A stretch of 23,729 nt of DNA from a virus (Duplodnaviria; Heunggongvirae; Uroviricota; Caudoviricetes). The translations under genes were made by a program, and so were the position numbers. The stretch is taken from IMG/VR virus record IMGVR_UViG_2651869696_000004. One strand, given 5' to 3'. Positions 107 to 23,646 of the stretch are shown one piece after another. The notes beneath the pieces are model-generated. The model saw only the letters and a program-made list of their open reading frames with translations, was not told where the DNA came from and made no database searches. Within the stretch, counting starts at the first letter, position 1. Each line of letters opens with the position of its first letter.

Positions 107-946
107 TTGGTTGATGGTTTTGGCACAACCCCCATCTCACACTTTGGATATCGCATCGCAGACTATGATGTGACGACACTTTATCCGCTTGCTTTGTTCA
201 TTTCGATAGCTAACATCGCTGATGATGAGAAAGCAGCCATGTATAATGATCTTGTCTCCTACGTAGTACGAAGAGCCGTATGTGGCCTGACGCCAAAGAA
301 TTACAACAATGTATTTATGAATGTATTGCGGCACTTGGCTAAAACGGAAATTTCCAGTGTTGAGTTACGTAATATCCTCAATAACTTAAATGGCGAAGCC
401 TCACGTTGGCCTGGTGACTCAGAATTTCTCAACGCTTGCATCAATGCTCCACTTTATCCTGGCAGGCTCGACGCACCGAAAATGCGCTCAATGTTAACGG
501 AACTTGAAAGAGAACTTTGTCGCCAAGTGAAGACCGAAAAGCCTGATGTTCCAAATCTTTCTAATCTCGATATCGATCATCTTATGCCCCAAAGTTGGTA
601 TTCCTGTTGGCCTCTCGAAAATGGTCGTATGGTGACAAATTCAGATGCTACGGTATTGAACCAAATTGTTCTGTCTGGAACCGATCTTACCCCTGAACAG
701 CTACTGGTAAGGAAACGGCAACAAGCGATAGCTACTTTGGGAAATCTAACTTTGCTTAACCTTAGCGTAAACCGTTCTGTTCAGAATGCTGTATTTCTGA
801 AAAAACGTGATGCTCTCATCGTCCACACCAATCTACGACTGAACATTCCACTTATAGTTAAGGATAAATGGGATGAGGATGAAATCCTGGAGCGGGGTAA
901 AAATTTGGGGGAAATTGCATTGAAAGTATGGCCAAAACACGATTAA
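107..946 (+). CDS. DUF1524/GmrD-like His-Me finger (HNH-type) nuclease domain protein; start codon uncertain (TTG at 107 or ATG at 239)
   Basis: Motifs DIDHLMPQS and GNLTLLNLSVNRSVQNAVFLKKRD match the DUF1524 signature found at the C-terminus of GmrSD-type enzymes; in-frame stop at 8-10 excludes a longer N-terminus in this frame; appears lower in GC than the phage genes by eye. Confidence 0.7.
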   Translation: MVDGFGTTPISHFGYRIADYDVTTLYPLALFISIANIADDEKAAMYNDLVSYVVRRAVCGLTPKNYNNVFMNVLRHLAKTEISSVELRNILNNLNGEASRWPGDSEFLNACINAPLYPGRLDAPKMRSMLTELERELCRQVKTEKPDVPNLSNLDIDHLMPQSWYSCWPLENGRMVTNSDATVLNQIVLSGTDLTPEQLLVRKRQQAIATLGNLTLLNLSVNRSVQNAVFLKKRDALIVHTNLRLNIPLIVKDKWDEDEILERGKNLGEIALKVWPKHD

Positions 947-1041: not shown

Positions 1042-1170
1042 CTAGGTCTCGGACTTTGTACCGCTTATCTTGTTTTCAAAAATCAGCTCGCATCCTGCAC
1101 AGTTCAGCGCATTACGTTGTAGATCTGTGTTCTGGTCATTTGTTGATACGCGTACATAGCCAATAAGCAT
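1042..1170 (-). pseudogene. Serine DNA invertase (Gin/Pin/Hin/Cin family) N-terminal remnant, 43 codons then TAG
   Basis: Minus-strand translation from ATG at 1170 gives MLIGYVRVSTNDQNTDLQRNALNCAGCELIFENKISGTKSET*, which matches the conserved invertase N-terminus including the catalytic Ser in YVRVST; similarity ends about codon 40 and no downstream invertase sequence is present. Confidence 0.85.
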
Positions 1171-1224
1171 GGTAGATCCCCCTGACAAAAGCAGGAATGA
1201 TGCCATTTGCTCGTTATTTCTGCA

Positions 1225-1250
1225 TTTTCATAAACGTTGGTTTGGGAGAA
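1225..1250. repeat. Left crossover site of invertible segment (TTTTCATAAACG-TT-GGTTTGGGAGAA)
   Basis: 26-bp site with two 12-bp half-sites around a 2-bp core; inverted relative to 3145-3170 with a 14-bp perfect match; resembles gix/hix/pix architecture. Confidence 0.7.
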
Positions 1251-1747
1251 GGCTCTGCATTACCTGCGGTGTGCCTGTTCCGTGGCCTTCCGCCACTCCG
1301 CCGACAGGCTGGCTGAAATGCAATGGTGCGGCTTTTTCTGCTGAAGAATACCCGGAACTGGCAAAGGCTTACCCGACAAATAAATTGCCTGATTTACGCG
1401 GTGAATTTATTCGTGGCTGGGATGATGGGCGTAGTGCGGATGCGGGGAGAACAATATTATCCGCTCAGGGCGATGCCATACGTAATATCTATGGTGAGTT
1501 CAAGACTGTAAACACCGAAAATTATTCAATATGGGAATCAGTAGGCTCGTTTAAGGGGGCAGTGGTGCCTTTGAACCCCTCAACGAACAATAGTTATTTC
1601 TCCTTAGTCAGAAGTATGGTGACAGAAAGGTCCGAGGGCGGTGTTTACCCAAAAGTGATTGGCCTTGATGCTTCAAGAATTGTTCCAACTGCAAACGAAA
1701 ATCGACCCCGTAACATTGCCTTTAATTATATCGTGAGGGCTGCCTGA
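1251..1747 (+). CDS. Alternative tail-fibre C-terminal cassette (Sv'-like) with tail-collar domain; no start codon of its own; out of frame with the crossover site as it stands
   Basis: PVPWPSATPPTGWLKCNGAAFSAEEYPELAKAY...LPDLRGEFIRGWDDGR is a phage tail-collar-type motif; the track ORF 1169-1747 reads through the invertase start and the crossover site, so its first 27 codons are not genuine. Confidence 0.7.
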
Positions 1748-2349
1748 TGGATAAAGCTATATTAAATAAGGAACTCATCGCCACAAAGGCGGGAGATATT
1801 ACCGTTTATAATTATGATGGTGAAACACGAGAATATATTTCCACATCAACCGAATATCTTGCTGTGGGTGTCGGTATCCCGGCATGTTCCTGTTTAGATG
1901 CTCCTGGCTCATATAAAGCTGGTTATGCAATTTGCCGTTCTGCAGATTTTAACTCATGGGAATATGTGCCAGACCATCGCGGTGAAATCGTCTATAGCAC
2001 CGAAACAGGAGAATCAAAAGAAATCACAGCTCCGGGTGATTACCCTGAAAAGACAACCACTATCGCCCCGTTAACGCCATACGATAAATGGGATGGTGAG
2101 AAATGGGTGACGGATACCGAGGCACAGCATAGAGCAGCAGTAGACATGGCAGAAACACAGCGGCAGTCGCTGATTGATGCTGCAATGGTTTCCATTAGTC
2201 TGATTCAACTGAAATTGCAGGCCGGGAGGAAGCTGACGCAGGCAGAAAACACCCGACTTAACGCCGTGCTGGATTACACTGACGCGGTGACGGCAACAGA
2301 TACCAGCACCGCGCCGGATGTCATCTGGCCTGAACTGCCGGAGGCGTAG
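1747..2349 (+). CDS. Tail fibre assembly protein (Tfa), partner of the alternative fibre cassette
   Basis: 200 aa; start overlaps the cassette stop (TGATG); C-terminus DYTDAVTATDTSTAPDVIWPELPEA is similar to the C-terminus of the convergent Tfa. Confidence 0.8.
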   Translation: MDKAILNKELIATKAGDITVYNYDGETREYISTSTEYLAVGVGIPACSCLDAPGSYKAGYAICRSADFNSWEYVPDHRGEIVYSTETGESKEITAPGDYPEKTTTIAPLTPYDKWDGEKWVTDTEAQHRAAVDMAETQRQSLIDAAMVSISLIQLKLQAGRKLTQAENTRLNAVLDYTDAVTATDTSTAPDVIWPELPEA

Positions 2350-2773
2350 GCCATTCAATATCTGGAGCACTGGAGGTATCAACCAGCTCCAGTGCGTCCA
2401 GATAATCCAGCCACAAATTATATTGCGCCAGTTCGTCACCTTTCAGACGACCAATAGCGGCTTTACCAGGCCATTGTTTACTGTTCATATAATCGTTGGC
2501 CTGATTAATTAGTAGCTGTCTTTCTGATTCAGTAATTTCAGTAAGTTCTTCATGCGTAGGGGCAGGAATATCCGCCCACGCGGGCAGCCCATCACCTCCG
2601 GCAATACGGATTTTTCCTTGTGGCGGTTCAGCCATAAATTCACTGATAATATTTTGACTCACCTCCTTAGCATCTGATAAATCCCATCCCTCTGATTTAT
2701 ATTTATCAATCATATCCACAGGGAAAAAAGCATTATGCCTTGCGCTATAAACATATTCGTTCATATAAATCAT
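2321..2773 (-). CDS. Tail fibre assembly protein (Tfa) for the currently expressed fibre
   Basis: 150 aa immediately downstream of the fibre gene; conserved Tfa C-terminal region LWLDYLDALELVDTSSAPDIEWP; 3' ends of the two tfa genes overlap convergently at 2321-2349. Confidence 0.8.
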   Translation of the reverse strand: MIYMNEYVYSARHNAFFPVDMIDKYKSEGWDLSDAKEVSQNIISEFMAEPPQGKIRIAGGDGLPAWADIPAPTHEELTEITESERQLLINQANDYMNSKQWPGKAAIGRLKGDELAQYNLWLDYLDALELVDTSSAPDIEWPTPPAVQAR

Positions 2774-2784
2774 CCTGAATAAAA

Positions 2785-3447
2785 TTATTCACCAACAGCC
2801 CACCAACTGTAAGTCATTGACACCTTGTCGCTGGTTGATGCAGTTCTGTAAGCAGAATTAAAGCCGGTTAATGTTGGGCCTTCTACGGACATAACGAATC
2901 CACGCCCTGCACCAAAAGGCGCACCGCCATCGCCAGAATGGGTAAGAATGGCGATATCCGCTTTTTTAGGGAAAGGGATAGGAAATGTAATCCTCATTGT
3001 TTGCGTCGATAATTTCGGCATAGCCTCACCTCGACCATATTGCAGGATTTTCCCGTTGGGTAATTTCATCCATCCATCACCACTGGCAAAAGAGGTCATG
3101 TCCGGTATCTGATTTTCCCCTGTCCCCACCCCTCGTTTTGCTGCTTCTCCCAAACCAAGGTTTTCGAGAGCCGTTTTCACCGTGCCATCCGATTTGATAT
3201 CACCAAACGGATTCTTGCGGCTTAACAGCAGAGCACGAAGCGCGGTAAGCAACTGGTCGTTTCGCCCCTTCTCCAGGCTGGCACCGGATGCCTCCACCAC
3301 GCTGCAAAGCTCCTCCTGCAACATATCAAAGTAGTCATCATCCAGATCGGTGGCAGGTGTGCCGGTCTGGGGGTTACCACGGGTAAAACCGTTCTTACCC
3401 GCGCCGAACTTATCCTTCTGCGCGGTTTTCGTGTCTATACGATGCAT
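2785..3447 (-). CDS. Tail fibre protein (StfP-like); constant N-terminal part outside and variable C-terminal part inside the invertible segment
   Basis: 220 aa directly downstream of the gp48-like gene; crossover site 3145-3170 falls at codons 93-101 ([12 protein letters not shown]). Confidence 0.8.
3145..3170. repeat. Right crossover site of invertible segment (TTCTCCCAAACC-AA-GGTTTTCGAGAG)
   Basis: Inverted copy of the 1225-1250 site; core dinucleotides are identical when the sites are aligned in the same orientation. Confidence 0.7.
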
Positions 3448-4035: not shown

Positions 4036-5084
4036 GAAATCGCCCCCAGAACCGCCAGCTCATTTTTCGCAATGGTGATATTGTCCGCCGGTGCAAGCAA
4101 CTGATGGCTGTATTCCCCGTTCGCACCGGAAATCGCTTCACTGATACGTGACACCTTCAGTTCTCCCTGCGGATAACCATCACGCAGCAGGAACGAACGC
4201 AACTCCGCGGTGATGGCAGCCCGTATTTCCGGTGTGTCCGGCGTCACACGGATATGAAAATCCACCGTATGTGCCACCGGCCTGAACACATACAAATCAG
4301 AGCCTGCCACCGGGGCCAGTGGCCCGATATGTTGTCTTGCCGCCGTTTCCGTTGATTCTTCCGGAATGGGATTAATCAGGTCACTGCTGGCAATCATCAC
4401 ACCGACAGTCCCCGTTCCCATCCAGTGTCGGTATGTCCATGCGCGGGTAATGCCAGGCACTTCTTTAGCCCAGACGACATAGTCCCCGTCAGCCCCGCCC
4501 TGCGGCGTCCAGTAATACCGCTCAATGACGCGGGCGCGCCACGTTTCCAGCTCTTCAGTATCAAATCCGCCTGTCAGGGTGTCAGCCACACCGGAAGACG
4601 GCAGACCATTCACCGGCGTGACCAGGATTAATGCCGTACCGTCGTCAGCGTTACCGACCGCACCTGCACTTGAGCAGGCGATCGGCACGCGCAGGACACC
4701 ACCGGAGCTGATTGCATCGTCAGTTGTCGTGTACTGCACCAGGTCATCGCGCTGAATAACACTCCCGGCAGTCACCTTCAGGCCATCGCTGACACCTTCC
4801 CAGCGCATATACCCGCTGGCAACCGTGGCACCCTTGCGCGGACACCGTTTCATCGCAGCATGTCGCGCCAGCCAGGACTCATCGCACAGGTCAGGCAGCA
4901 TATTCATTGCCAGATAATCGATGTAACCGTAGACCGTATGCAGCGCCGCCGCATACACCTTTGCCCGCACGTCTTCATCCATGCGCCGGAGCGTGTCGCT
5001 GACGTCCAGCCTGGCGAATAAATCGTTACGGAGCATACTGATATTTTCTGCCAGCGTCGGGCGCTGAAATTCACTGTCCGCCAT
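4026..5084 (-). CDS. Baseplate J-like protein (Mu gp47-like)
   Basis: 352 aa; conserved position and length in Mu-like baseplate module. Confidence 0.8.
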
Positions 5085-5499
5085 GCGTTATCGCACTCCA
5101 CAGATCATCAAAAGAAATCACTACTGGTCCATCACGACGCCAGAGGGTGATACTGTTACCCAGCTCATTAATCCCGGTGCGGTGGATATCCAGATCAATA
5201 CGGGACACCACGCCGTCATCAATCATCCATTGCAGGCATTCGCGGATATATCCCCTTACCGTCTGCACCAGCTGATTGGTCAGTTTGCTGCGCTGAAGCA
5301 GCCACAGTCGGGAGCCGTAACGGTCATTCTGTACCGCAGGCCAGGTATCCCCCCACCATCCCATCGGGACGTCGGCATTGTCATCAGGCTCCGCCCGCCG
5401 CCAGGTGAACAGGGAAATCACCACGGCGCGGGTCAGCGGATCCAGCGGTGCGCTGGCGCAGGTGCGTTTACCGTTCACCGTCAGCCACAGTTCCATCAT
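5071..5499 (-). CDS. Mu gp46-like baseplate protein
   Basis: 142 aa; synteny between baseplate V and J-like genes. Confidence 0.7.
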   Translation of the reverse strand: MMELWLTVNGKRTCASAPLDPLTRAVVISLFTWRRAEPDDNADVPMGWWGDTWPAVQNDRYGSRLWLLQRSKLTNQLVQTVRGYIRECLQWMIDDGVVSRIDLDIHRTGINELGNSITLWRRDGPVVISFDDLWSAITHGGQ

Positions 5500-6044
5500 G
5501 CCTCCATCGCTTTATCAGGTTTGTCGGTGTTACTGCCCTGACCGTTCTCCCTGTGACGATGCCCGTTATAGGCAAGCCGCATCGCTGACATGGTGGTGCC
5601 GCCGGAGTCGCACAGGTCTTTCACCTGTCCGGTCACTTCCAGATCCATTTCAAAACGTGCTTCAGGTGCATTGCGAAACGTGATCGTTTTCCCTGCACCG
5701 TCCACCACGATCCCCTCCCGGGTCAGCGTCACAGACTGCCCCTGATCGTCATAGACAGCCACCTCACCCGTCTGCAGCCCTTTCAGGCGGTAGCGCCGGT
5801 CCGACACCGTAACAACCACCGCATGAGAACGGTCGCCATCCGGAAACAACACCACCGCTTCCGCACCGCTGTTTGCCCTTGCGGTAAAACCGTAGGGTTC
5901 AAGATGTTCAACCCCGGCTTTGGGTTCACCGGCAATCAGGGACACATCCACGGTCTGACATTTCGTGGCGGCACTGATGCTTTTCACCACGGCCCGCCCA
6001 ATCAGGCCGAGGAGTTGTCGCTGCATGGCTTCAATCGTCCTCAT
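5496..6044 (-). CDS. Baseplate assembly protein V / spike (Mu gp45-like)
   Basis: 182 aa; synteny; overlapping start/stop with neighbours. Confidence 0.75.
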   Translation of the reverse strand: MRTIEAMQRQLLGLIGRAVVKSISAATKCQTVDVSLIAGEPKAGVEHLEPYGFTARANSGAEAVVLFPDGDRSHAVVVTVSDRRYRLKGLQTGEVAVYDDQGQSVTLTREGIVVDGAGKTITFRNAPEARFEMDLEVTGQVKDLCDSGGTTMSAMRLAYNGHRHRENGQGSNTDKPDKAMEA

Positions 6045-18072: not shown

Positions 18073-19806
18073 TTAAAGCGAGCGGATCCCATAGGACTCA
18101 ATGTGGTCAGACAGCGTGTCTTCTTTCTCGTACAGCATGGCTCTGCCAACCGCCATAATCAGCGCAACTGCACCATCGATTTTGTTTTCCGCCTGCTCTT
18201 TGACGGGCTTCACCACATCATCGTTACCCGGAATGGTTTTGCCGACCACGTTGCCGATACACCAGGTCATGATGGGATTGCCATCATGATGAAAGCGCCC
18301 CGATTCAATTGCCGCTTCCAGCTCTTTCATCGGGTCGGACATGTTGGTGTAGTTCTGAATGATAGTGATGGGGTTCAGGTCTTCATCAGCAAGGTCATGT
18401 GACAACCCGGTCGCCCCGAAGGGGTCGATGGGTGACTCACTGACCGGGCTGATTTTGTTCGCCGCTTTGGCCTCCTCGAGGATGTAGCGATAATCCACCT
18501 CCGCACCATCGGTAACGGTCAGAACGCCCATTTCCACCCATTTCTGAAAGCGTTCGGCTGTCCGGCGATCTTCATTTTTCTCGACGCTGTACACCGTGTC
18601 ATACGGTACCCAGAAACGCGGGGCCACACTGTAGTAATGCGTTTTACCGTCAATCTCGCGGGTATAAAGTCGCGCCATGCTGTTCATATCCAGCTTACGC
18701 GCCAGGTCAAAGGCCAGAATGCACGGCTGCCCCTCGAACTGCTCAAGGGTCAGTGATTTATCCTCGCAGCTCTGCCAGCTCACCAGGTTGAAATACGCCG
18801 AACGCGCCGACACCCAGATATTGAGGTGTTTTGTTTTAAAGACGTTTGCCAGACGGGCGTTATTTTTCGCACGCTGCTGCTGACTTAACAAAAATTCGCG
18901 ATAAACCGACACGCCAATATTTGGATTGGCTTTTTCCAGCACCTGCGGGTCGGTCCAGTCGTCACCTTCATCAACGGTATAGATGATCCCGAACAGTTCA
19001 TCGTTAGGCACCGAGCCGTTGAGCATCTCGATGACTTCCCGCCGTTTGTCGTAGCACGGCCCCTCAATGTTGTACCCGGCGGTAGTGATAGCCCACATCA
19101 GTGGCTGACGTCGCGCCCCCATCCCGGTAAGCATCGTGGTGTAAAGCGCATCTGTGGCGTGCTCGTGATATTCATCCACCACCGCACAGTGGGGTGATGA
19201 ACCATCACCGGGGTTACCGATCAGCGGTTCAAAACGCGCACCATCCTCCGGACGGTTCATGTTTGAGGCGTTAACCTCAATCCCGAACGCTTCCGTCAGC
19301 ATGGGTGTGCGTTTACACATCAGTCTTGCCGGACGAAAGACTTCCCATGCCTGTTTCTCCGTCGTGGCACCGGAATACACTTCCGCGCCGAACTCGTTAT
19401 CACAGGCAAAACAATACAGGGCGACACCGGCAGAGATTGCCGATTTGCCGTTCTTACGGGGGATTTCGGTATACACCTCACGGAAGCGGCGCAGCCGGGA
19501 GCCTTTATTGACCCAGCCAAACGCGCAGCAGATCACAAAGAGCTGCCACGGCTCCAGCGTGATGGGCATCCTCTTAAATGCCCACTCACCCTTAGTGTGC
19601 GGCAACAGCTGAATAAATTTCGCGGCCCGTTCAGCCAGGTCCTTGTCGAAGCGGTAACGAAACGACTTACTTTTTTCCGCCATCAGGTCATCAAGATGGC
19701 GCTGGCAGGCCTGAATCACAAACTGGCAGGCCACAATCTTTCCGCGCACGACATCACGGGCATACTGATTGGCAGCATTTACGTTGGGGTAAGATTTCCG
19801 GCTCAT
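18073..19806 (-). CDS. Terminase large subunit
   Basis: 577 aa; Walker A-like IPRKNGKS; C-terminal nuclease region; overlaps small subunit gene by 4 nt. Confidence 0.9.
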
Positions 19807-20306
19807 GATTCGATGATTTTCAGAAACGGGTTAGTGGCTTTCTTCTGCCCCGCCAGGCCAATCAGACGCTGGCGGCTGCTGGGGTCGAGTCCGAGCATTG
19901 CCCCCGTACTGCTCATCTCGGACTCCTGTTCTTTTTTGGCGGTCAGCTCCGGATTTTTGACCCTGCCGCCCATTGCACCGGTGATGGTGTTGCCCTGTCT
20001 GGCAATATTTTTCACGGCACGTCGCCAGAACTCGTAGGCCACGCACCACCGCTCAAGCACCGCGAGGTCAGTCACGCACAGCAGGCCCTGACCGCAGAGT
20101 TCTTTAGTTGTCAGTTGCCACATGATCGTAGCGAGAGGGAGATCTTCTTCAGCGAACCACTCCGGTGGCTCAACACCTTTGATGGGCGTAAAAACAGGTT
20201 CATCTTTATTCAGGGCTCGCTTGCCGGGGTTTCCGGCCAGCGCCTTGCGCGCCGTTGGCTTGGGGCGACGCCCGGAACGCCCCGCCGTTCCAGCCATATG
20301 CGGCAC
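19803..20306 (-). CDS. Terminase small subunit (P27 family)
   Basis: 167 aa, basic N-terminus; immediately upstream of large subunit. Confidence 0.8.
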
Positions 20307-20422: not shown

Positions 20423-20773
20423 TTACTTCAGCCGTTCACGGGCCGTCTTCGCCTTATGACACAGCCAGCACAGACTCTGCAGATTACTGTCGGCATCAGA
20501 GCCGCCATGCGCTTTAGGAATGATGTGGTCAACGGTTTTCGCCTCACGCACCACACCAGCACGCAGACATAACTGACATAAACCTTTATCACGCTTCAGC
20601 ACACGCGCGCGGATAACATCCCACTTCGAACCATAGCCGCGCTGGTGACGGGATTGTCCTGGCTTGTATTGTTTCCAGCCTTCGCTTTTGTGGCTTTCGC
20701 AGTAGCCTGACGGGTCAGTCGTGGTATTGCGGCAGCCGCGAACGCGGCAGGCTTTTGGGATTCTAGGGGGCAT
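20423..20773 (-). CDS. HNH endonuclease (terminase-associated)
   Basis: 116 aa; CxxC...DHIIPKAHGG...N...LCWLCH zinc-finger HNH motif; immediately upstream of terminase genes; no obvious Shine-Dalgarno. Confidence 0.9.
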   Translation of the reverse strand: MPPRIPKACRVRGCRNTTTDPSGYCESHKSEGWKQYKPGQSRHQRGYGSKWDVIRARVLKRDKGLCQLCLRAGVVREAKTVDHIIPKAHGGSDADSNLQSLCWLCHKAKTARERLK

Positions 20774-20823
20774 ATAAAAAATTTATAATAAGTAAAATAA
20801 TAAAGAAAAATGCTCAAAGGCAA

Positions 20824-21378
20824 TTATCTTGACTCAAATACAAATCTAGAAGAGATGAGCTTATCAAGCATTTTCATAAGTAAATCCTTACTCTCACCAC
20901 CATTTATATATTTATTAAAGTTAGACTCGAACTCATGCCAAACTTTTTCTAACTCAGTATTATCAAATAAGTGCTCTGTCGCAAACCATGAAGATTGGCA
21001 ACAATCGAAAATACTCAAAAGCTCATCAAATCTTTTAACATTCTCTTCTCCCAACTCAATTTGCTGACTAATAAGATCTACATCTTTAAATAGCCATTTC
21101 GCAATAACTTGCTCTCGTTCATCATTGAGTTGCTCGGGGTCAATATTGACAGGCATAAATAATAGAGCTGTCTTTAATTTCTTTAATGCATTCCTAAAAT
21201 CTATTTTTACTTTTGTTTTCTCTTGTTCCCTCCACGTAAATAATGCCTTGAACGCCAAAAACAAAGTAACAATAGTAGCTCCAGCACTCACCCAAGATGC
21301 AATCATTGCCCAACAAGCCCACTCAGCAGCAGCACGGTTTGCTACAAGTGTCTCATATGCAATATAATTTTCGTTCAT
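20824..21378 (-). CDS. AT-rich moron: membrane-anchored protein of unknown function
   Basis: 184 aa; one N-terminal hydrophobic helix (about residues 20-47) then acidic helical domain; GAGGT Shine-Dalgarno 4-5 nt before the ATG; region conspicuously AT-rich versus flanking phage genes. Confidence 0.6.
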   Translation of the reverse strand: MNENYIAYETLVANRAAAEWACWAMIASWVSAGATIVTLFLAFKALFTWREQEKTKVKIDFRNALKKLKTALLFMPVNIDPEQLNDEREQVIAKWLFKDVDLISQQIELGEENVKRFDELLSIFDCCQSSWFATEHLFDNTELEKVWHEFESNFNKYINGGESKDLLMKMLDKLISSRFVFESR

Positions 21379-21455
21379 TTTTACCTCACTGTTAATAGTG
21401 AGAGTATTGTAACTAAAAGCATAATAACTAGAACAGTCAAATAAAAATATTTCAC

Positions 21456-21734
21456 CTAATGAATATTATTATTCAAATGCAGATTGTACTTTTGCTCTCC
21501 TAACCTACGAAGATCAGACTTATCACGGTTACATAGCCCCAGTGCTGATAGCAGACTTACATTCAAACTAAGACTATCCCCATAAGTCAGAGGATTGGGT
21601 ATAACTGGCTGTGGAGTTTCAGCGAGCAGGTTCGCCGGTAACGGTATCGTTGGAACCTGCACGTATACTGTCCGCGTACTTCCGCAACCGGTCAGCAGCG
21701 ACATCAGGCACAGGGCGTGAAGCGCAATCATCAT
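21456..21734 (-). CDS. Rz1: o-spanin (Rz1-like outer-membrane lipoprotein), overlapping the 3' end of Rz in another frame
   Basis: Internal start MMIALHALCLMSLLTGC with lipobox LTGC, followed by a Pro-rich segment; overlaps and extends beyond Rz. Confidence 0.65.
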   Translation of the reverse strand: MMIALHALCLMSLLTGCGSTRTVYVQVPTIPLPANLLAETPQPVIPNPLTYGDSLSLNVSLLSALGLCNRDKSDLRRLGEQKYNLHLNNNIH

Positions 21735-22011
21735 CCGCAACAGCCACTTTGATATCTTCCTGGGTTCTCTGTGACTCCAGTGCGATCTGCTGTTTTGCAT
21801 GCTGGTTAGCCTCCAAAACTGTATTGACGATTTGCATTGATTGCAGGACGTTATTGGTAATGGCAGTTGCTGATTCAGCATTTTGTAAAGCCTCATCAGC
21901 ACGTTTCTTTTCGTACTGATATTTGCTGTAGTAGTAGTTGGCTGACCAGATGAAAGAACCAATGGCAGTAACGAAAAAAGCAGCGATAATCAGCTTATAA
22001 CTCAACTTCAT
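21619..22011 (-). CDS. Rz: i-spanin (Rz-like)
   Basis: 130 aa; N-terminal transmembrane segment LIIAAFFVTAIGSFIW then coiled-coil periplasmic domain; directly after endolysin. Confidence 0.8.
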   Translation of the reverse strand: MKLSYKLIIAAFFVTAIGSFIWSANYYYSKYQYEKKRADEALQNAESATAITNNVLQSMQIVNTVLEANQHAKQQIALESQRTQEDIKVAVADDDCASRPVPDVAADRLRKYADSIRAGSNDTVTGEPAR

Positions 22012-22471
22012 TTACCACCCCACCAGCCTCTTTAAATCGGGCAATCAGGTCACCGATTTTATGTTCATACTGACCGTAACCTGCGCCCGGCAGTGAAGCC
22101 CAGATATTGCTGCAACGATCGATAGCCTGACGGATATCACCGCGATCAATCATCGGTAAAGCGCCACGCTCTTTAATCTGCTGCAATGCCACTGCGTCCT
22201 GGCTTTTGGGGGAGAAGTCTTTCAGACCAAGCTGTTTACGGTAAGCATCCCACCATCGGGAAAGAATCTGGTAGCGTCCAGCAGCCGTTGATTTAAGTTT
22301 TGGGTTTAGCGTGACAAGTTTGCGAGGGTGGTCGGAGTAATCAGTGAAGAGTTCACCACCGACAATAACGTCATAACCGTGGTTACATGTCGGTTGCCGT
22401 CCATTATCCGTTCCTTCTGACCATGCCACCATATCGAGGAAAGCTTTACGCTGGGAATTTAGTACCTGCAT
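21995..22471 (-). CDS. R: Endolysin, lambda R-type lytic transglycosylase
   Basis: 158 aa; close to lambda R over the full length as recalled from memory (NQRKAFLDM.AWSEGTDNGRQ...), not confirmed by search. Confidence 0.9.
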   Translation of the reverse strand: MQVLNSQRKAFLDMVAWSEGTDNGRQPTCNHGYDVIVGGELFTDYSDHPRKLVTLNPKLKSTAAGRYQILSRWWDAYRKQLGLKDFSPKSQDAVALQQIKERGALPMIDRGDIRQAIDRCSNIWASLPGAGYGQYEHKIGDLIARFKEAGGVVNEVEL

Positions 22472-22474
22472 AAA

Positions 22475-22810
22475 TTACTCCTTAGAGCCACCAAACTTGT
22501 TACCGATTACTCTCATTGCAGCCCCACGAATTGCATCGACCCCGATCAGCCCCACCCCACCACCAATGGCAACAGAAAGCGATTTAGGCCATCCGACATA
22601 CTCAAGCGCGGATGCAAAGGTCAGCGTCAGAGCGCCACAGAGCAAAATTTCGAGTGTTTTTCGTTTCCAGCCGCCACCACCACCAAAATAGGCAATACGC
22701 AAACCAGCCATAACAATCGACATAATCACTGCGCCCAGCGGCGTATCTCCACGCCACCAGCTCTGGAACAACTCCAGCCAGTCCGGCCAGGTATTTGGGT
22801 TATGAGGCAT
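22475..22810 (-). CDS. Putative holin (three predicted transmembrane segments); start set at ATG 22810
   Basis: Immediately upstream of endolysin; three hydrophobic segments and charged C-terminus; GAGGTGA upstream of ATG 22810; the track start at 22882 is a GTG inside the terminator hairpin. Confidence 0.55.
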   Translation of the reverse strand: MPHNPNTWPDWLELFQSWWRGDTPLGAVIMSIVMAGLRIAYFGGGGGWKRKTLEILLCGALTLTFASALEYVGWPKSLSVAIGGGVGLIGVDAIRGAAMRVIGNKFGGSKE

Positions 22811-22852
22811 TTCGTCATCTCTCACCTCGCGATTATTTGCGGGTGCTGTGTT

Positions 22853-22880
22853 GGAAATAAAAAGGCCACGCAACGTGGCC
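22853..22880 (-). terminator. Intrinsic terminator on the late-gene strand (7-bp GC stem, 3-nt loop, then TTTTTATTT)
   Basis: Minus strand reads GGCCACG-TTG-CGTGGCC followed by TTTTTATTTCC; lies between methyltransferase stop and holin start. Confidence 0.6.
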
Positions 22881-22887
22881 ACCAGAA

Positions 22888-23646
22888 TTATTTCCCCACC
22901 AGTTCACTTACCTCTTTCACTGTCTGGTTAAACCGATCTGACTCAAGCTCAACACCTAACGCCCGACGCCCCAGCTCCATTGCTGCTTTTATTGTGGAAC
23001 CAGATCCCATAAAAAAATCAGCAACCAGATCACCTGGTCGACTACTGGCATTGATTATTTGCCGGAGCATATCCGCCGGTTTCTCACACGGATGTTTACC
23101 CGGGTAGAACTGAACGGGTTTATGCGTCCAGACATCGGTATAAGGCACGGAGACTGATACGGAGAAATAGCGCCGGAGAGATTTAAACTCATCCAGCAAT
23201 TCAGAATATTTGCGATTCAGTGAATCATAAGATGCCACCAGCTGGTGGTGTGTCTGTTCCAGTTGTTGTTCCTGAAACTTCTCTGCCGCTATACGGGAAA
23301 ACAGTGCCTGCAACTTCCGGTAGTCAGCCTCATTCGGCAACTGCCACTGACTGGCACCAAACCAGTGGGAAACCATGTTTTTCTTACCAGTGGCTTCGGC
23401 AATCTGTTTTGCCGTTATACCCAGTTCGGCACGTGCATCCCTGAAATACGATATCAGCGGTGCCATTATGTGCTGTTTGAGTTCCCTTTCTTTTTCCGCA
23501 TAGCCGTCACTTTTGCCGCGATATGGCCCCTGGTAATGTTCAGCAAACAGAACGCGCTCTGTAGCGGGGAAATATGCCCGCAGGCTTTCTTTATTACACC
23601 CGTTCCATCGTCCGGACGGCTTCGCCCAGATGGGTAATGACTCCAA
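22888..23646 (-). CDS. DNA methyltransferase (N6-adenine/N4-cytosine, beta-class-like) lacking the N-terminal DPPY-type motif in this frame
   Basis: C-terminus HPCEKPADMLRQIINASSRPGDLVADFFMGSGST matches the HPTQKP...DPFAGSGTT AdoMet-binding region of YhdJ-type methylases; no DPPY-like motif upstream; TTG start. Confidence 0.7.
   Translation of the reverse strand: MESLPIWAKPSGRWNGCNKESLRAYFPATERVLFAEHYQGPYRGKSDGYAEKERELKQHIMAPLISYFRDARAELGITAKQIAEATGKKNMVSHWFGASQWQLPNEADYRKLQALFSRIAAEKFQEQQLEQTHHQLVASYDSLNRKYSELLDEFKSLRRYFSVSVSVPYTDVWTHKPVQFYPGKHPCEKPADMLRQIINASSRPGDLVADFFMGSGSTIKAAMELGRRALGVELESDRFNQTVKEVSELVGK

Follow-up and report, generated by a model that had tools for sequence, protein, structure and literature searches.

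The window analyzed in this work (the whole stretch of 23,729 nt, IMG/VR virus record IMGVR_UViG_2651869696_000004) represents the late region of a prophage of E. coli and Salmonella. The head of this prophage is of HK97 type, its tail is contractile (myovirus-type) and its terminase is P27-type, and all of its late genes lie on the minus strand. An AT-rich insert with one gene separates the lysis genes from the HNH and terminase genes. The features of the insert and of its surroundings are as follows.

18073-19806, minus strand: TerL
19803-20306, minus strand: TerS, P27-type
20423-20773, minus strand: HNH
20774-21455, minus strand: AT-rich cargo insert (moron), from the Rz1/LysC stop to the HNH start, delimited by GC content and by the junctions of relatives
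20774-20823, minus strand: 3' spacer of 16% GC with no terminator (scan; fold z = -0.06)
20824-21378, minus strand: 184-aa CDS with ATG start, member of phrog_6169 (ORF call and family match)
21378-21376, minus strand: ATG start codon
21383-21390, minus strand: 3' hairpin arm AGTGAG (21390-21385) overlapping the Shine-Dalgarno (SD) sequence GAGGT (21387-21383), assigned from pairing and controls
21397-21402, minus strand: anti-SD CTCACT, the 5' hairpin arm (alignment and folding)
21406-21411, minus strand: -10-like box TACAAT (TAnAAT in the family), abutting the anti-SD (alignment of 13 leaders)
21412-21440, minus strand: TTGACT-17-TTTAGT, present in the window version of the leader only (read from the sequence; not called by the promoter scan)
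21419-21455, minus strand: putative decayed remnant of a 41-nt element (by-eye leader comparison; right-most ~16 nt 10/16 identical to the consensus)
21456-21647, minus strand: Rz1/LysC
21619-22011, minus strand: Rz (DUF2570)
21995-22471, minus strand: GH24 endolysin
22475-22882, minus strand: lambda-type holin
22888-23646, minus strand: DNA methylase

The GC content of the 682-bp insert (20774-21455) is 0.327, made up of 0.351 in the gene, 0.26 in the 5' spacer and 0.16 in the 3' spacer, as against 0.553 on the HNH/terminase side, 0.489 on the lysis side and 0.53 in the whole window. A preliminary description of this DNA had reported a 184-aa ORF in a markedly AT-rich region, and both the ORF call and the base composition (0.327 versus 0.49-0.55) bear this out. 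The region of the insert is matched at 99.9% identity by several E. coli chromosomes and at 99.3% by Salmonella phage 118970_sal3.

Twenty-seven of 5,426 complete E. coli genomes carry the insert, as does one of 50,697 phage records. In records sampled down the similarity ranking (H31-H49) both flanks are kept and the insert is absent, and in two same-backbone relatives with like lysis and HNH/TerS flanks (L065 and L066) the junction consists of 26 nt only. The slots of other relatives hold a DUF6236, DUF2441 or GrlR-like gene, a 65-aa ORF or a gene for a 145-aa protein that is itself a divergent phrog_6169 member. These alternative cargoes are single genes, each on the late strand and each AT-rich (GC 0.33-0.41). 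Because the empty-slot relatives carry an Rz1 allele different from that of the window, the exact left boundary of the insert cannot be placed.

Homologues with 59-70% identity, again on the late strand, have the lysis genes on one side and the small terminase gene on the other. Their backbones are unrelated, number at least five and differ in holin, endolysin and terminase: a Citrobacter backbone with a lambda-type Nu1/GpA terminase, a Klebsiella backbone with Terminase_4, holin_8 and a GH19 endolysin, a Serratia backbone with a Terminase_2 small subunit (and a Terminase_3 large subunit in locus L008), and one backbone each from Kosakonia and Enterobacter. These mixed lysis and terminase partners make a role tied to one particular holin, spanin or terminase unlikely. 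The homologues have a GC content of 0.35-0.41 versus 0.43-0.58 in their 3-kb flanks, and thus share with the window insert a composition unlike that of the neighboring genes. In Klebsiella relatives an Acb2/Tad1-hairpin gene (counter-defence) occupies the same slot too.

The gene had been proposed to be a foreign accessory insert, and the comparison agrees with this: it is absent from close relatives, it is AT-rich everywhere, and it occupies the same site in unrelated backbones, which is not the pattern of a core gene with typical GC in relatives. We conclude that the insert is a genuine moron of an uncharacterized membrane-protein family, a horizontally acquired single-gene cassette, and that the slot between the spanin and the HNH/terminase genes of this HK97-like prophage with P27-type terminase is hypervariable. 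The cargo slot itself is of a kind already known from lambdoid phages. Morons in the sense of Juhala and Hendrix are familiar from lambdoid and HK97-like phages, e.g., lambda bor downstream of Rz and HK97 gp15. Like these, the insert is an extra gene between conserved late genes, missing at the same junction in close relatives and deviant in composition, its homologues have their own promoter-like box and terminator, and its location after the lysis genes is that of bor. It differs from them in that the window copy lacks a terminator and the gene is on the late-gene strand, and in the protein itself, for which the PHROG scans detected no similarity to families of assigned function.

At their stop codon the homologues have a strong intrinsic terminator; the Citrobacter locus has another one upstream, after the lysis genes. 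The same CCGCCnnnGGGCGG-T run also follows unrelated cargo in E. coli slots and therefore behaves as a shared slot boundary. On either side of the window gene, terminator scanning and folding found no terminator; the 3' spacer of 50 nt shows no structure (z = -0.06) and leads directly into the HNH start codon, for which no recognizable SD was found. The window gene therefore lies in line with late transcription.

At the 90% identity level the protein forms 13 clusters, every one of them from Enterobacterales. When 1.84 billion representatives (50% identity) were searched with a profile, 122 relatives were recovered, of which 58 had E-values below 1e-10. Apart from a few short fragments and one weak 420-aa match, nearly all of the relatives are 130-220 aa long. 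Every one of the 31 aligned members matches phrog_6169, a PHROG of unassigned function, and the other PHROGs matched by these members are likewise without assigned function. The family is thus widespread in Enterobacterales prophages and completely uncharacterized. When the protein and 31 diverse members were scanned, no match to annotated Pfam, PHROG, PADLOC or NCBIfam models was found; the best hit among the PADLOC-DB defence models was CARF_TM at E = 0.021, with 0.0013-0.0054 for one member each. The profile search of the PDB returned nothing meaningful (top E = 0.012, a C-type lectin fragment), and fold searches with the predicted structure returned generic helical (four-helix) bundles only. 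All of the distant members are named "hypothetical protein" in their sources, and no mention of the protein or of phrog_6169 was found in the literature. HepS and Tai were considered as described relatives and rejected, since the papers concern unrelated proteins. Identification as a SLATT-type transmembrane (TM) effector was also rejected (SLATT_1 E = 0.0068 and 16.4 bits versus a cut-off of 41, with one hydrophobic segment, not two). The family does share with SLATT and CARF_TM effectors a membrane helix followed by a helical cytoplasmic domain, along with weak sub-threshold matches, but it differs from them in having one TM helix instead of two and no partner sensor or nucleotide-signaling gene nearby. 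In comparisons of homologues dN is 0.2-0.28 and dS is saturated, which indicates strong purifying selection on a real gene.

The description of the product as one N-terminal TM helix and an acidic helical domain with no recognized motif is upheld by hydrophobicity, charge distribution, AlphaFold2 (AF2) prediction and the family scans. There is one hydrophobic segment at residues ~21-49, with flank charges of +1/-3 before it and +8/-3 after it, and from the positive-inside rule we infer an N-out/C-in, single-pass inner-membrane topology. The C-terminal domain is acidic (12 K/R versus 23 D/E). The AF2 model, built from the 31-sequence alignment (pLDDT 88.2), is all-helical, with helices at residues 3-73, 81-97, 101-138, 142-158 and 164-176; the long helix 3-73 passes the membrane and joins a bundle with helices 81-97 to 164-176, so that the C-terminal part is predicted to be an acidic cytoplasmic four-helix bundle. 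The protein would accordingly be made of a short conserved periplasmic N-tail, then a TM segment with a basic juxtamembrane helix, where conservation is highest, and finally an acidic bundle that varies more. The N-terminal module, with a TW..QEK.KVK..FK motif, scores 0.53-0.59 in conservation versus 0.28-0.45 for the C-domain, and many profile matches span residues 1-80 only. A Serratia chimera (P0013) has the leader and the first ~45 residues in common with the family and a different C-terminal domain. Such a constant head and variable tail would be expected if the cytoplasmic domain recognizes changing partners.

The preliminary description had also noted a palindrome with one arm over the GAGGT SD, and had suggested that it could form a hairpin that sequesters the ribosome-binding site (RBS) or serve as an operator. 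The palindrome is indeed found at 21385-21402, where arms of 6 bp (CTCACT/AGTGAG) enclose a loop of 6 nt, and it is conserved across the family. Taken alone, the 48-nt leader of the window is modestly unusual (dG -9.1, z = -2.0). We aligned 13 leaders, the upstream regions of homologues from different backbones, and found a conserved unit of TAnAAT, 0-3 nt, the anti-SD (C)ACCTCA, a 6-10-nt loop, the SD TGAGGTG, 4-6 nt and the ATG. This unit persists despite saturation at synonymous sites. In the helix, 89.9% of alignment cells are paired versus 35-56% when the partners are slid; pairing includes G-U pairs and a few double changes (CCCCTC/GGGGGG, CCTCTT/AAGGAGG and ATCCTCAT/ATGAGGAT). Covariation is modest, with three pairs showing double changes, because the SD itself is constrained. 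In the read-through context, the predicted unpaired probability of the SD has a median of 0.01 in 15 family leaders versus 0.27 in 53 controls (long phage ORFs from the same loci; p = 0.0003). Hairpins over the SD as a general feature of cassette genes were rejected, as 65 other cassette genes have a median of 0.35, no different from controls. No Rfam family matches the leader. The conservation, the compensatory changes and the control set thus support an RBS-sequestering hairpin, at the level of predicted RNA pairing, and together they make a stronger case than the reading of a single sequence could give.

The conserved leader unit begins with the TAnAAT box. In the 13 leaders T1, A2, A4, A5 and T6 of this box are conserved and position 3 is free, which is the pattern of a sigma-70 -10 element and makes the box a candidate promoter. 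In the Serratia homologue L008 the promoter scan calls GTGACA-17-TAAAAT (10/12) on it; the TACAAT of the window is without a good -35. The sigma70 promoter proposed earlier for the window, TTGACT-17-TTTAGT, stands in part: the sequence is there (TTGACT at 21440-21435, TTTAGT at 21417-21412), but its -10 is poor, as position 2 is not the key A, the promoter scan passes over it, and the homologues lack it. It may still serve the window copy, to which it is specific, and is probably not the conserved element, which is the TAnAAT box one base downstream. As the -10-like box abuts the anti-SD, transcription from it would start at the last base of the anti-SD arm, 7 nt past the box, where 11 of the 13 leaders have a purine; the predicted +1 of an own-promoter transcript in the window is A21399. 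The predicted unpaired probability of the SD in the family leaders is at most 0.04 in read-through transcripts versus 0.08-0.78 in transcripts from the predicted own start (0.04 and 0.78, respectively, for the window).

This geometry suggests a simple mechanism. A sigma-70 RNA polymerase at TACAAT would begin its transcript about 7 nt further on, where the anti-SD ends; this transcript would be without the anti-SD, its SD would be free, and the protein would be translated in the lysogen. A late-operon transcript reading through from the lysis genes would include the anti-SD, its SD would be folded away, and no translation would follow. We infer that the leader may act as a filter of transcript origin, with own transcripts translatable and late read-through silent. 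In the insertion sequences IS10 and IS50, fold-back inhibition reportedly shields the transposase from outside read-through. In the moron leader the RBS would likewise pair with sequence upstream of the native start, the position of which is predicted from the -10-like box, and by analogy only own-promoter transcripts would be without the pairing sequence and hence be translated. The difference is that the logic proposed here is drawn from the abutment of the -10 box and the anti-SD, and that the gene is a prophage moron in a late operon, not a transposase. If the rule is true, a gene inside a strongly transcribed late operon would be translated from its own promoter only, which would explain how prophages silence potentially self-harmful cargo during their own lytic growth.

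Alternatively, the hairpin could be carried by all transcripts and throttle translation in general, serve as an RNA thermometer or stabilize the 5' end; transcripts would then start upstream of it, in the window from TTGACT-17-TTTAGT and 2-3 nt ahead of the hairpin. Such a reading bears on regulation alone and would fit any function of the protein. The presence of TTGACT-17-TTTAGT in the window agrees with it, as do the short stems, A/U-rich loops and dG of -6 to -16 kcal/mol of the family leaders. In addition, most homologues are preceded by a 41-nt element, AAGGCATTACAGCAGGCATTCAnnnAGTGCCTGTGATAATG, and many have within it a further -10-like motif, TGTGATAAT, which precedes TAnAAT by 9 nt; transcripts from TGTGATAAT would include the whole hairpin. 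However, TAnAAT is kept at the exact -10 consensus positions and at a fixed distance to the anti-SD, even in the loci that have TAnAAT and no upstream 41-nt element (L008, L012, L059 and the window), 11 of the 13 leaders have a purine at the predicted +1, and a stabilizer hairpin has no need to include the SD. We therefore regard a hairpin on all transcripts as doubtful, though well worth keeping in mind, and prefer the filter of transcript origin.

How the window copy itself is expressed is a separate matter. Autonomous expression, as put forward in the preliminary description, can be hypothesized; with no terminators and no good -35 for TACAAT, the window copy may instead be expressed mainly within the late operon. 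At 33% GC the insert is also a likely target of H-NS, which may keep it silent in the lysogen.

Among the main sources of new anti-phage and lysogenic-conversion functions are the cargo slots of prophages, and an exclusion, abortive-infection or conversion function had been suggested for this gene. Its context makes this plausible; no similarity to a known system was found. In what we regard as its most likely role, the protein would be expressed in the lysogen and act at the membrane against incoming phages, either by exclusion at the inner membrane or by a membrane-acting abortive response. Membrane-located superinfection-exclusion proteins include P22 SieA, T4 Imm, HK97 gp15 and lactococcal Sie2009. 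Like them, the phrog_6169 protein is small and carried by a prophage as an accessory gene product, with a predicted inner-membrane anchor; unlike them, the bulk of it is predicted to be cytoplasmic, and none of the 31 members scanned showed sequence or profile similarity to superinfection-exclusion families, as only function-less PHROGs were matched. Taken by itself, a role in phage exclusion or defence is possible but falls somewhat short of probable. For the proposal in its general form, i.e., a mobile cargo cassette with its own leader filter and a membrane function against phages expressed in the lysogen, we consider the balance to be slightly in favor.

Two other roles would place the protein in the lytic cycle. 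The first is counter-defence or takeover of the host in the course of infection, as for other cargo in the accessory region that follows the lysis genes. The gene has the late-gene orientation, and Acb2/Tad1-hairpin genes, besides their place in the Klebsiella slot, adjoin the 41-nt element elsewhere. The leader design speaks against translation from late read-through transcripts, however, the homologues are insulated by terminators, and to our knowledge a membrane anchor is unusual among anti-defence sponges and inhibitors, which leaves this role quite unlikely. The second is that of a late lysis-accessory protein (an antiholin, a lysis-timing or a spanin-associated protein) made with the lysis cassette in lytic growth. 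A small membrane protein encoded directly downstream of Rz/Rz1, on the same strand and with no intervening terminator in the window, would suit such a role, and the neighborhood of lysis genes is conserved among homologues. Yet the gene is found with at least four different sets of holin, endolysin and spanin, most prophages with near-identical lysis cassettes are without it, a strong terminator cuts the Citrobacter homologue off from the lysis genes, the SD is predicted to be closed in read-through transcripts, and the Pfam and PHROG scans gave no match to a holin or antiholin family; we judge a lysis-accessory role to be even less likely than counter-defence.

That the palindrome is a DNA operator for a repressor, as the near-perfect inverted repeat close to a promoter-like box had suggested, is very improbable, since the arms vary among homologues yet stay complementary to the SD with G-U pairs tolerated, as fits an RNA and not a DNA site, the loop varies from 6 to 10 nt, and the repeat lies downstream of the -10 and over the RBS. 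We give hardly any credence to the window copy being a non-functional passenger in decay, its regulatory context lost: the 41-nt element is only a remnant and the downstream terminator is missing, but the -10 box, hairpin and SD are all intact, as is the ORF, which is 98.8-100% identical over the 27 E. coli genomes, one Salmonella phage and a 436-member cluster.

Much of the interest of the moron, together with its family-specific leader design, lies in the cassette element found in related loci. The 41-nt element forms a nested hairpin of -22.1 kcal/mol whose 3' arm bears an extended -10-like motif. It belongs to no Rfam family, and its sequence was not found in the literature. An intact copy is absent from the window and from the same-backbone relatives, and nhmmer gave no significant match in the window; the remnant at 21419-21455 would fit an import of the gene along with part of its original leader. 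Promoter-early stem-loop (PeSL) cassettes are known from T4-type phages (PMC2839356, PMC4122927). The 41-nt element resembles them in being a highly conserved stem-loop with a -10-like motif that borders small genes of various kinds and is arrayed in a hyperplastic region, and differs from them in sequence and in phage group (temperate enterobacterial phages); the resemblance applies to the related loci, the window having the remnant only. A bolder proposal would unite all of these observations: phrog_6169 would be a new membrane-anchored anti-phage family in which a conserved TM head is joined to a cytoplasmic sensor bundle that diversifies, an anti-SD embedded in the promoter would silence late read-through, confine translation to lysogeny and so prevent self-harm in lytic growth, and its cassettes would be bounded by an undescribed 41-nt stem-loop/-10 element that organizes PeSL-like arrays in temperate enterobacterial phages. 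We offer this as speculation that is unlikely to be right in every part. The element may mark and mobilize cargo cassettes of temperate phages, and if so it would be a search handle for more of them. It occurs, with sharp edges, in at least 120 viral contigs. Among the matches listed, 22 different gene clusters are found upstream of it (DUF2560 in 29 of 66 loci, and also Acb2/Tad1, Rha and Rz) and 47 different ORF clusters downstream, and in 17 loci two to three same-strand copies bracket single small genes.

Most homologues of the 184-aa one-TM protein are preceded by a 41-nt element that forms a nested stem-loop, AAGGCATTACAGCAGGCATTCAnnnAGTGCCTGTGATAATG, with sharp edges (-22.1 kcal/mol) and with TGTGATAAT contained in its 3' arm. 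The element was found in at least 120 viral contigs, where it is flanked by varied small accessory genes, an arrangement reminiscent of the T4 PeSL cassettes. No Rfam family matches it and no match was found in the literature. Copies on the same strand are also arrayed either side of single small genes, with gaps of 269-333 nt or ~935-1133 nt; the cargo bracketed in this way includes DUF2560, a 63-aa two-TM protein, Rha with an 84-aa ORF, and a 169-aa ORF. The positions in the window and in the related loci (L-numbers) are as follows.

Window 21419-21455, remnant of the 41-nt element
L013 3923-3963, 41-nt element
L038 3922-3961, 41-nt element
L064 3920-3961, 41-nt element
L073-L192, at least one copy per locus
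L175 5890-6580, array
L188 3161-5191, array
L090 5123-5517, array
L123 1545-2610, array

An identical intrinsic terminator, CCGCCnnnGGGCGG followed by 6-8 T, lies downstream of unrelated cargo genes in different phages; it is absent from the window. This terminator looks like a common right-hand boundary of the cargo slot and is possibly a recombination joint.

L002 5883-5902 and 6554-6571, terminator
L008 (Serratia) 5554-5571, terminator
Slots of L070, L071 and L072, terminator

In E. coli L1PEag1 (L069), the slot (1272-1851) carries a direct duplication of ~250 nt with part of the 5' end of HNH inside it, which is evidence of rearrangement at the junction. No recognisable Shine-Dalgarno sequence precedes the HNH start (20773) in the window, at 20774-20790 (…TTATAAATTTTTTATATG). 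The empty-slot relatives have AGGAA upstream of HNH, so the insert took the place of the ribosome-binding site of this gene.

In L068, an E. coli prophage with the same backbone, the cargo slot encodes a 'hypothetical protein' that is a divergent member of the 184-aa family (…VWRRQEALKAKMALK…LP…ICEHML…FVFK), and its gene has an anti-SD/SD pairing of its own, AACCT/AGGTT. Two chimeric relatives have the family's leader and, over their first ~45 residues, its N-tail and TM helix, joined to a C-terminal domain that is unrelated to that of the family. This suggests that the leader and TM 'head' form a portable module.

L068 1399-1836, minus strand, 145-aa divergent member
L012 (Serratia) 5001-5534, chimeric relative P0013
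L117, downstream ORF, chimeric relative

The accessory region that follows the lysis genes also contains, in Klebsiella prophages, Acb2/Tad1-hairpin genes (anti-CBASS/anti-Thoeris sponge-like), and elsewhere such genes adjoin the 41-nt element. In the window, an ORF encoding a GmrSD_C domain (PF07510, E = 8e-21) probably represents the 3' portion of a type IV restriction gene of the GmrSD type, cut off by the left end of the window; since this ORF is located beyond the tail-fibre genes, it appears to mark a second cargo site, occupied by a known defence gene.

L005 3863-4147, Acb2/Tad1-hairpin gene
L006 3859-4143, Acb2/Tad1-hairpin gene
L007 1060-1344, Acb2/Tad1-hairpin gene
L074, upstream ORF, Acb2/Tad1-hairpin gene
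Window 107-946, plus strand, ORF with GmrSD_C domain
Window 1747-2349, plus strand, tail-fibre assembly gene (Caudo_TAP)
Window 2321-2773, minus strand, tail-fibre assembly gene (Caudo_TAP)

The two Caudo_TAP genes are convergent and adjoin tail-fibre C-terminal segments within 1169-3447, a stretch of lower GC (0.41-0.48). Their arrangement resembles that of an invertible host-range segment.

The record of Salmonella phage 118970_sal3 (KU927493.2/NC_031940.1) is 77,375 bp long, with the insert present twice, and the genome announcement gives 39,464 bp (PMC5043551); the record looks like a concatemer. In L058, the sRNA family STnc100 was matched in Rfam at 867-1041 on the plus strand (58.9 bits, which exceeds the gathering score), ~3 kb upstream of a distant member of the 184-aa family.
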